Shown one piece after another: positions 41,260 through 41,849 of a stretch of 64,000 bases of DNA. The notes beneath the pieces were generated by a model. The model had not been told where the DNA came from, did no database searches, and worked only from the letters and a program-made list of their open reading frames with translations. Made by a program: the position numbers and the translations under genes. Each line of letters begins with the position of its first letter. Within the stretch, counting starts at the first letter, position 1. The stretch spans positions 2,268-66,267 of the forward strand of contig CANRCF010000006.1 of assembly GCA_947629045.1 (NCBI GenBank), read 5' to 3'. The DNA comes from an uncultured Clostridia bacterium (GTDB taxonomy: Bacteria; Bacillota; Clostridia; TANB77; CAG-508).

Positions 41260-41288
41260 TTGATTTAAATGTCGTTTTATTATATAAT
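41260..41288 (+). promoter_or_regulatory. Consensus-like SigA promoter of the small hydrophobic peptide gene
   Basis: TTGATT (41260-65), 17 nt spacer, TATAAT (41283-88). Confidence 0.7.
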
Positions 41289-41330
41289 GTGCTTGTCTCC
41301 CATATTGCTTATCTGTTGAAAGGTGGTGAT

Positions 41331-41399
41331 ATGATGGATAAGCTAATAATGCTTGCTGTATTAGTTCTTATTTATTTAATCTTGTCCTTATTTAAATAA
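41331..41399 (+). CDS. 22-aa hydrophobic peptide MMDKLIMLAVLVLIYLILSLFK; candidate type I toxin
   Basis: AAAGGTGGTGAT RBS, own promoter and terminator. It is on the strand opposite to the neighbouring minus-strand phage genes. Confidence 0.55.
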   Translation: MMDKLIMLAVLVLIYLILSLFK

Positions 41400-41409
41400 G
41401 TTCTACATA

Positions 41410-41531
41410 CAAAAATACTAGAGTCTAGCCACTCTAGTATTTTTTGTTCTCCTTTTATAGATAAATTCTTTTAATGCTTGCTTACAGAATTTAGAAAGGA
41501 AGATAAAAATGATATTCTCTTTCTTCTCTGT
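41410..41531 (-). ncRNA. Predicted ~120-nt convergent sRNA (candidate type I antitoxin)
   Basis: Minus-strand promoter TTGATT (41566-61), 17 nt spacer, TATAAT (41543-38). No ATG-initiated ORF. Runs into the shared terminator, so the 3' ends overlap. The ends are predicted only. Confidence 0.45.
41415..41445. terminator. Bidirectional intrinsic terminator shared by the peptide mRNA and the convergent sRNA
   Basis: atactagag / ctctagtat 9-bp stem, with A5 on one side and T5 on the other. Confidence 0.8.
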
Positions 41532-41849
41532 TCCTATATTATACTAGAGTTATTTATAAAAATCAACACTTTTTGTTCATTTTTATACTTTTTTGTCGAC
41601 TTTTTTCATTTTTTTATGACTTTTTATGCATTTTTACATATATTTTGTATACACTTTATGCAACTTCTAATGTTATTATACCATTTTTATGTTAATTTTG
41701 CAAATAAAAGAGCCTATCTTCTGATAAACTCTTTAAAATTTTTACATATCATAATATAGACAACTCATCTTTAGATGTGCTTTATTTTTTTCTGCATTAT
41801 AATTAAACCATATTTTAAATGTGGGATTCAATGGGATTTTGTGGGTACT

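Follow-up and report, generated by a model that had tools for sequence, protein, structure and literature searches.

The question raised by this locus is whether a short convergent gene pair in a prophage of an uncultured Clostridia bacterium is a type I toxin-antitoxin unit, as had been proposed in a preliminary description. The window, i.e., the whole 64,000-nt stretch that was analysed, is a low-GC Firmicute chromosome segment with a prophage on the minus strand. The prophage has an integrase gene (52865-54076) adjoining tRNA-Arg(CCT), a gene for a CI-like HTH/S24 repressor (50899-51573), and genes for capsid, tape-measure and endolysin-like proteins. A DUF3800 protein gene (51847-52590, plus strand) lies between the repressor and integrase genes, a position typical of accessory genes expressed in lysogeny. 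The peptide/antisense module is located within a 936-bp gap (40915-41849), bordered on one side by a late-activator-like gene (41850-42302; phrog_36, with weak similarity to sigma-70 region 4) and on the other by a 73-aa ORF and the HNH, TerS and TerL genes. The gap had been taken to be otherwise silent, which proved incorrect, because a tRNA-like gene, a second antisense promoter and two minus-strand terminators are also found there. The tRNA-like gene (40932-41093, plus strand) is counter-oriented and has its own promoter (TTGACT-17-TATAAT, 40932-60) and its own terminator (41073-93). ARAGORN assigned it to tRNA-Val with anticodon AAC (40973-47), and it is atypical: its Rfam score is low (42 bits), acceptor pairs 1-2 are non-canonical, and a C rather than a U precedes the anticodon.

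Promoter-like hexamers occur in this AT-rich region at chance density (28 found vs. 26.6 expected), and only terminator-like sites are enriched (4 found vs. 0.6 expected). Since the promoter-like sites are at chance density, the window alone could not settle whether the module is real, and its significance comes from dozens of unrelated contigs in which the entire unit is conserved. A back-translated peptide pattern retrieved five phage contigs that align over the entire unit, promoters and 5′ UTR included. When the 19-mer spanning the Shine-Dalgarno (SD) sequence and start, the antisense promoter and the terminator arms were used as further queries, the set grew to 22 IMG/VR contigs and 63 loci of GTDB species genomes; the 19-mer also caught the unrelated genes L031-L036. 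From metagenomes, the SD-start 23-mer retrieved no more than 3 contigs. The whole module (both promoters, SD, ORF and the terminator T1) was present in 20 IMG/VR phage contigs and at 39 loci of species-representative genomes. Almost all come from uncultured Clostridia of the gut of humans, rabbits, rodents and ruminants, and some genomes have 2-3 hairpin copies. The hairpin loci that lack the small ORF carry either a T1-type hairpin after ordinary genes or a decayed module. In the decayed modules L054, L059 and L061 the antisense part and its promoter are kept, and the peptide ORF is frameshifted or lost.

The module was absent from twenty IMG/VR relatives of the activator (L001-L020), which share with the window only ∼55 bp after the stop codon and the 25-bp region of a palindrome. 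Contigs with an identical activator protein have a gap that is 100% identical, and they were therefore uninformative. Copies were also found in the core chromosome: between rplI and a gdpP-like gene in four species, between gltX and the RNase J gene in two, and beside rpsR, glyQS and hslO. These copies exclude a purely phage-late-regulatory role. The members at the rplI-DHH/GdpP-like site (L093, L106, L112, L116) and at the gltX-RNase J site (L076, L111) are Lys-rich and 25 aa long. A late-operon leader was ruled out by the core chromosomal copies and the variable position of the module, and a leader peptide or attenuator by the lack of a downstream gene on that strand. The rodent-gut phage PQ006095.1 (Bajarodcaudo virus 4; L120, 17429-17554) carries a divergent member with a variant hairpin. 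Its annotation places a 41-aa hypothetical CDS on the antisense-RNA region and leaves the 22-aa peptide ORF, MKNILRIIALVIIYLILKLFDN, unannotated.

On the plus strand, the promoter that had been described, TTGATT-17-TATAAT (Ptox, 41260-41288), is present, and transcription is predicted to start at ∼41295. Most of the 49 unique modules have such a promoter, with its end 35-61 nt ahead of the start codon. Likewise, the reported ribosome-binding site and ORF were recovered: the SD AAGGTGGTGAT at 41320-41330 and the ORF MMDKLIMLAVLVLIYLILSLFK at 41331-41399, which would encode 21-22 residues. The start codon is probably the second ATG (41334), giving a 21-aa peptide. This ATG is favoured because it lies 7 nt from GGTGG, because L068, L072 and L105 have only that start, and because of the family alignment. 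The 5′ end of the peptide mRNA (41295-41339, plus strand) is predicted to fold into a stem-loop that buries the SD and the first AUG, with a predicted probability of only 0.015 that the SD of the window is unpaired. Family-wide, this probability was 0.18 for 49 toxin genes vs. 0.65 for 203 long ORFs taken from these loci (p = 1e-21).

Forty peptides, from all classes, align as one family with the pattern M-x-x-x-I-K-L-x-V-L-x-x-I-x-x-I-L-K-x-F-D/E, a length of 20-27 aa and invariant I17 and F21. A hydrophobic ORF of 20-27 aa preceded by an SD was found in 60 of the 85 hairpin loci, ending 5-59 nt before the hairpin, and some of these ORFs start with TTG or GTG. For the coding analysis we compared 11 distinct ORFs of class A, the class of the window, over codons 10-21, which are free of RNA-pairing constraint. 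Thirteen of 18 alternative codons were synonymous, when ∼21% would be expected, and the 5 non-synonymous ones were conservative. At codon 18 all four Ser codons are used, and Leu synonyms that differ by a double change occur as well. This mostly synonymous variation indicates coding (purifying) selection on the peptide. Class A peptides have a single terminal Lys. Those of class B are Lys-rich and amphipathic, and are not plain transmembrane helices. The peptide had no match at E ≤ 10 in Pfam, the Fst_toxin model included, or in NCBIfam, and the peptide-family profile had none at E ≤ 10 in the PDB, including the solved Fst and PepA1 structures. PADLOC and PHROGs gave no relevant match for the module. 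An exact look-up of ten family peptides among 15 billion catalogued proteins found none of them, a look-up of the 36-aa GTG form found nothing, and a text search of the literature found the peptide strings in no paper.

Both RNAs would end at the same bidirectional intrinsic terminator, T1 (41411-41444, AAAAATACTAGAGT-CTAGCC-ACTCTAGTATTTTT). The shared hairpin is thus as first described; its stem, which had been given as 9 bp, is of 14 bp when the A/T flanks are included, with a 6-nt loop. The arms of T1 are identical in 85 loci, which is partly ascertainment as the arms served as search key; the loop varies, and a swap of U-A to A-U is seen at the stem top. The loop of the window, CUAGCC, contains CUAG, which fits the YUNR motif, the U-turn from which the kissing complex starts in par; loops vary among members, and a degenerate 4-nt motif of this kind is expected by chance. 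The same arms, AAATACTAGAG...CTCTAGTATTT, also end ordinary chromosomal genes in gut Clostridia MAGs (L083, L098, L064, L108, L065 and L101), so that the stem is a recurrent terminator in these genomes and is not exclusive to the module.

The antisense promoter P1, TTGATT-17-TATAAT, was confirmed on the minus strand (41566-41538), as was the lack of any internal ATG, and hence of an ATG-initiated ORF, in the region downstream of it. The predicted short antisense RNA runs from P1 to T1 (41408-41531, minus strand, ∼120 nt). In nearly all modules the antisense promoter lies 80-135 nt from the terminator, and no conserved ORF was found in the antisense RNA region. A search against Rfam returned no type I antitoxin family, either by gathering score or, over 40700-42000, at E ≤ 10, and no riboswitch was detected at the locus. 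Upstream of P1, eight T-tracts spaced ∼10.4 bp apart (41570-41646; A-tracts on the antisense strand) suggest intrinsically bent DNA or an UP-like element. Among class A members this insertion is confined to the window and, in part, L113.

In every class, the 11-45 nt just past the terminator repeat the -7 to +30 region of the toxin gene directly, in diverged form. Because the repeat is direct and is read from the opposite strand, the convergent RNA carries the complement of the start codon and of codons 2-8. In the window, DR1 (41334-41357, plus strand) covers the start codon and codons 2-8 with the blocks ATGGATAAG (41334-41342) and TAATGCTTGCT (41347-41357), and its diverged copy DR2 (41457-41482, minus strand) has the blocks ATAGATAAA (41457-41465) and TAATGCTTGCT (41472-41482). 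The two copies change together: CTT to CTC in L026, L105 and L115, CTTGCT to TTGGCT in L028, GCT to ACT in L030, and GATAAG to AACAAA in L068. The mean predicted duplex energy was -28.1 kcal/mol for cognate pairs vs. -17.2 kcal/mol for non-cognate ones (-21.1 within the same class and -16.2 between classes), and the cognate mean was reached by none of 20,000 permutations. In chimeric alignments of class A, 95.5% of the DR1/DR2 cells were paired vs. 30-45% in slid controls. Six class A pairs show compensatory double changes, with a score reached by 0 of 500 shuffles that do not correct for kinship. Gene conversion between the repeats could contribute to this covariation. The duplex of the window (-23.5 kcal/mol; z = -1.3 against mononucleotide shuffles) is among the weakest of its class. 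We conclude that the decisive pairing is the one predicted for the co-varying start-region repeat, and not that of the 34-nt 3′ overlap. A possible second repeat, GAAAGGAAGATAAAAATGA (41494-41512, minus strand), appears on reading the sequence as a weak copy of the SD/AUG region of the toxin gene, and might give the antisense RNA an anti-SD stretch. This copy is far better in L028 and L113 (GAAAGGAGGTG), and it is absent in L025, L030, L075 and L110.

The module has further elements on the minus strand. A second antisense promoter, P2 (41675-41703, TTGCAA-17-TGgTATAAT), is conserved in class A, and would give a transcript of ∼260 nt. Just upstream of it lies T0 (41700-41734), the terminator of the early operon, and past the toxin promoter, on the antisense strand, lies T2 (41199-41223, AAGAGCTTAT...TAGGCTCTT and a T run). 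T0 and T2 flank the module as direct copies, at 41706-41734 and 41197-41226, of one hairpin type (AAAAGAGCCTA...CTCTT) whose G·U pairs are valid on the minus strand only, which hints at a cassette insertion or exchange site. In L019, which has no module, a single hairpin of this type is found just before the first late ORF. Finally, the terminator arm occurs a third time, as ACTCTAGTAT (41550-41541, minus strand), within the spacer and -10 box of P1, and the P2 transcript would include this copy.

This arm copy (ACTCTAGTATAAT) forms the P1 spacer and -10 box in 22 of the 49 unique modules. P2 accompanies it in 21 of these 22 vs. 4 of the 27 others, and a conserved T2-type hairpin past the toxin promoter in 20 of 22 vs. 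8 of 27, shared ancestry not being controlled in either comparison. When the nascent P2 RNA was folded up to the terminator loop, the arm copy paired with the 5′ arm of the terminator in 19 of 20 modules; the minimum-energy fold of the full-length RNA still shows the terminator. From these folds one may tentatively propose a promoter-selective antiterminator, by which P1 and P2 RNAs would differ in stopping at T1, although we consider such a device doubtful. An RNA started at P1 would lack the arm copy, stop at T1 and be the short antitoxin. In an RNA from P2, or from phage read-through from upstream, the arm copy would pair with the 5′ arm before the 3′ arm is made, and this RNA would read through T1, run antisense across the whole toxin gene and its promoter, and stop at T2. 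If this were true, the promoter that fires would decide whether the module exerts its antisense control in trans or by full overlap, and silencing of the toxin would be coupled to the transcription state of the prophage.

The remainder of the gap shows features of its own. Right after the stop codon of the late-activator gene, the direct repeats ACCCAC/TCCCAT/TCCCAC are spaced by ∼10 nt (41846-41796, minus strand), and a TATAAT follows 19 nt past them. This layout is kept in relatives with other words (TCTTAC three times in L082, GTGCAC in L019), and the repeats and TATAAT are probably an activator-dependent promoter, even though it lies upstream of T0. The palindrome ATCAAT-N10-ATTGAT (41166-41187) is conserved in module-free relatives such as L007, and may be an operator or a late-region site. 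In L082, whose activator is 72% identical, the palindrome is on the opposite side of the module, which comes after it and not before it, and an extra 96-aa ORF (6392-6680) occupies the same early/late gap. The extra ORF and the changed position of the module mark the gap as a hotspot of accessory insertion.

The type I toxin-antitoxin reading is thus supported at the level of sequence: a hydrophobic ORF under purifying selection has its own promoter and SD, a convergent RNA gene has no conserved ORF, the two share a bidirectional terminator, and all of this is conserved. Comparison among the members also shows co-varying complementarity in trans, sequestration of the SD and a distribution over phages and core chromosomes that is typical of type I families and supports this assignment. 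We assign a probability of roughly 0.7 to the reading that the module is a type I toxin-antitoxin-like unit built on the par (Fst/RNA II) plan with a new family of very short peptides. That it is a genuine antisense-controlled peptide gene seems highly probable, and that the two genes form a true toxin-antitoxin pair is probable.

What we infer about transcription, RNA half-lives, the order of pairing, toxicity and biological role can be put together as follows. A sigma-A-type promoter would produce a toxin mRNA of ∼150 nt that ends at T1, conceals its SD and first AUG in a 5′ stem-loop, and encodes a single-helix membrane peptide of 21-22 residues. The convergent P1 would produce the non-coding RNA of ∼120 nt, which would reach T1 from the other strand and carry the complement of the AUG and codons 2-8. 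Pairing would probably start at the complementary terminator stem-loops and then zip over the start region, blocking ribosome loading and possibly triggering cleavage. If the prophage or the locus were lost, an unstable antisense RNA would disappear, the peptide would be made and would damage the membrane, and the element would thereby be stabilised. At the chromosomal copies, the peptide might alternatively have a stress role.

The alternative that survives best is a role other than toxicity: the peptide would be a small membrane protein under antisense regulation, e.g., a modulator of phage or host membranes that acts in superinfection exclusion, in lysis timing, or as partner of a transporter or sensor. 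The RNA architecture proves regulation and not toxicity; several copies stand beside housekeeping genes at conserved core-genome sites; class B peptides are Lys-rich and amphipathic; and the family lacks the charged tail that is common in Gram-positive type I toxins (PMC7699646, PMC7472228). A buried SD combined with a dedicated start-codon antisense is, however, the tight-off design of toxic peptides (PMC7472228), and the loci where the ORF has decayed and the antisense parts are kept fit loss of a toxin. A multi-copy distribution rich in mobile elements also fits toxin-antitoxin families. Ibs and ShoB, of 18-26 aa, are known toxins without a tail. On balance a non-toxin role seems unlikely.

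An insulating or terminator cassette at the phage early/late junction, which would manage read-through between operons and in which the small ORF would be incidental, is far less probable. It would account for the placement of the module in at least 14 phage loci, with a late-activator homologue on one side and HNH/TerS/TerL on the other, for the two flanking minus-strand terminators, for the likely activator-dependent promoter upstream of T0, and for the counter-orientation of the toxin gene to both neighbours in 27 of 36 loci. It would not account for selection on the protein and the family-wide conservation of the ORF, nor for a co-varying repeat aimed at the start codon of that ORF. Moreover, the module is also found at non-phage chromosomal sites, is absent from close phage relatives, and differs in L082 in its position relative to the conserved palindrome. 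A chance set of promoter-like hexamers, a short ORF and a terminator, as the chance density of promoter-like sites and the frequency of short hydrophobic ORFs in AT-rich DNA might allow, is refuted by dozens of unrelated contigs in which the whole unit is conserved and the changes are compensatory and synonymous, and its probability is negligible.

To our knowledge, almost no RNA-regulated systems are known from uncultured gut Clostridia and their temperate phages, and the present family would add to them a large, unannotated type I toxin-antitoxin-like one. The repeat pairs that co-vary in nature would offer orthogonal RNA switches ready for use. Should the peptide prove toxic, it would be a candidate for a role in prophage maintenance and a means of counter-selection in gut anaerobes that are genetically intractable. 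Counter-selection based on a toxin has already been done in Clostridioides difficile (PMC7699646).

How does the module compare with known systems? The preliminary description had likened its geometry to the prophage type I systems of Bacillus and Clostridioides. The txpA/bsrG type of Bacillus is not the closest model, since there the antisense overlaps the ORF. Like Bacillus subtilis txpA/RatA, bsrG/SR4 and bsrE/SR5, the module can be prophage-borne and has a convergent, 3′-overlapping antisense. In B. subtilis, however, the antisense covers the ORF in its 3′ part and exerts its effect chiefly via this overlap (PMC8594479), whereas in the module only the terminator overlaps and the site of co-varying pairing is the start region.

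The likeness of the peptide to Ibs, ShoB and BsrE, also suggested before, extends to size and composition only. The peptides of the Ibs/Sib and ShoB/OhsC systems of Escherichia coli are of 18-26 aa, almost purely hydrophobic, and missed by gene callers (PMC2887945). The module shares with them a very short, hydrophobic peptide, but their hosts are Proteobacteria, and neither a sequence nor an RNA-family match was found. Sib covers the ibs ORF completely, and OhsC is divergent without any overlap (PMC8594479), whereas the P1 RNA of the module overlaps only the terminator. As a hypothesis, full coverage of the ORF by the antisense of the module would need read-through from P2.

Similarities to CD0977.1/RCd11 of C. 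difficile and its relatives are that these are prophage-borne in Clostridia, have convergent toxin and antitoxin genes, and have two antitoxin promoters that give long and short RNAs with one terminator (PMC7699646). A role in prophage maintenance has been proposed for them (PMC7699646). Their toxins are of 34-53 aa with a hydrophobic N-terminus and a Lys-rich tail, as against 20-27 aa for the module peptides (PMC7699646). They pair in the overlapping 3′ region, and the long antitoxin has a c-di-GMP riboswitch, an element not detected in the module.

The comparison supports par/Fst-RNA II and SprA1/SprA1as as the closest models. Antisense RNAs of this class overlap the mRNA at its 3′ end without reaching the ORF, and their pairing lies outside that overlap (PMC8594479). 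With SprA1/SprA1as of Staphylococcus aureus the module would share a 3′-overlapping antisense whose functional pairing is outside the overlap, at the translation start. PepA1, unlike the module peptide, belongs to the Fst family and has 30 aa and an Arg-rich end, and no sequence relation between the two was detected.

The par locus of Enterococcus faecalis pAD1 has convergent promoters, a bidirectional terminator, direct repeats that sequester the site of initiation, and a 5′ stem-loop that covers the SD (PMC7472228). The module resembles it in its convergent promoters, in one bidirectional intrinsic terminator that would give complementary 3′ stem-loops, and in oppositely transcribed direct repeats that would provide complementarity at the translation start of the toxin. 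In both, the SD is hidden by a 5′ stem-loop, the overlap stops short of the ORF, and mobile elements as well as core chromosomes are occupied (PMC7472228, PMC8594479). The module differs from par in the length of its peptide (21-27 aa vs. 33 aa for Fst) and of its antisense RNA (∼120 nt vs. ∼40-65 nt). Further differences are the additional antisense promoter upstream, the terminators on either side and the third terminator-arm copy within P1. The Fst/Ldr signature consists of a Trp between the helix and a charged C-terminal tail, and of P/D/S/T-XXX-G in the helix (PMC7472228, PMC2887945). The alignment of the forty peptides contains no such Trp, charged tail, Pro or Gly motif (PXXXG). As judged from these comparisons, the module is par-like in design and its peptide is not a member of the Fst family. 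The regulatory design of par would then be joined here to an unrelated, much shorter peptide, which bears on whether such a design is inherited or re-invented.
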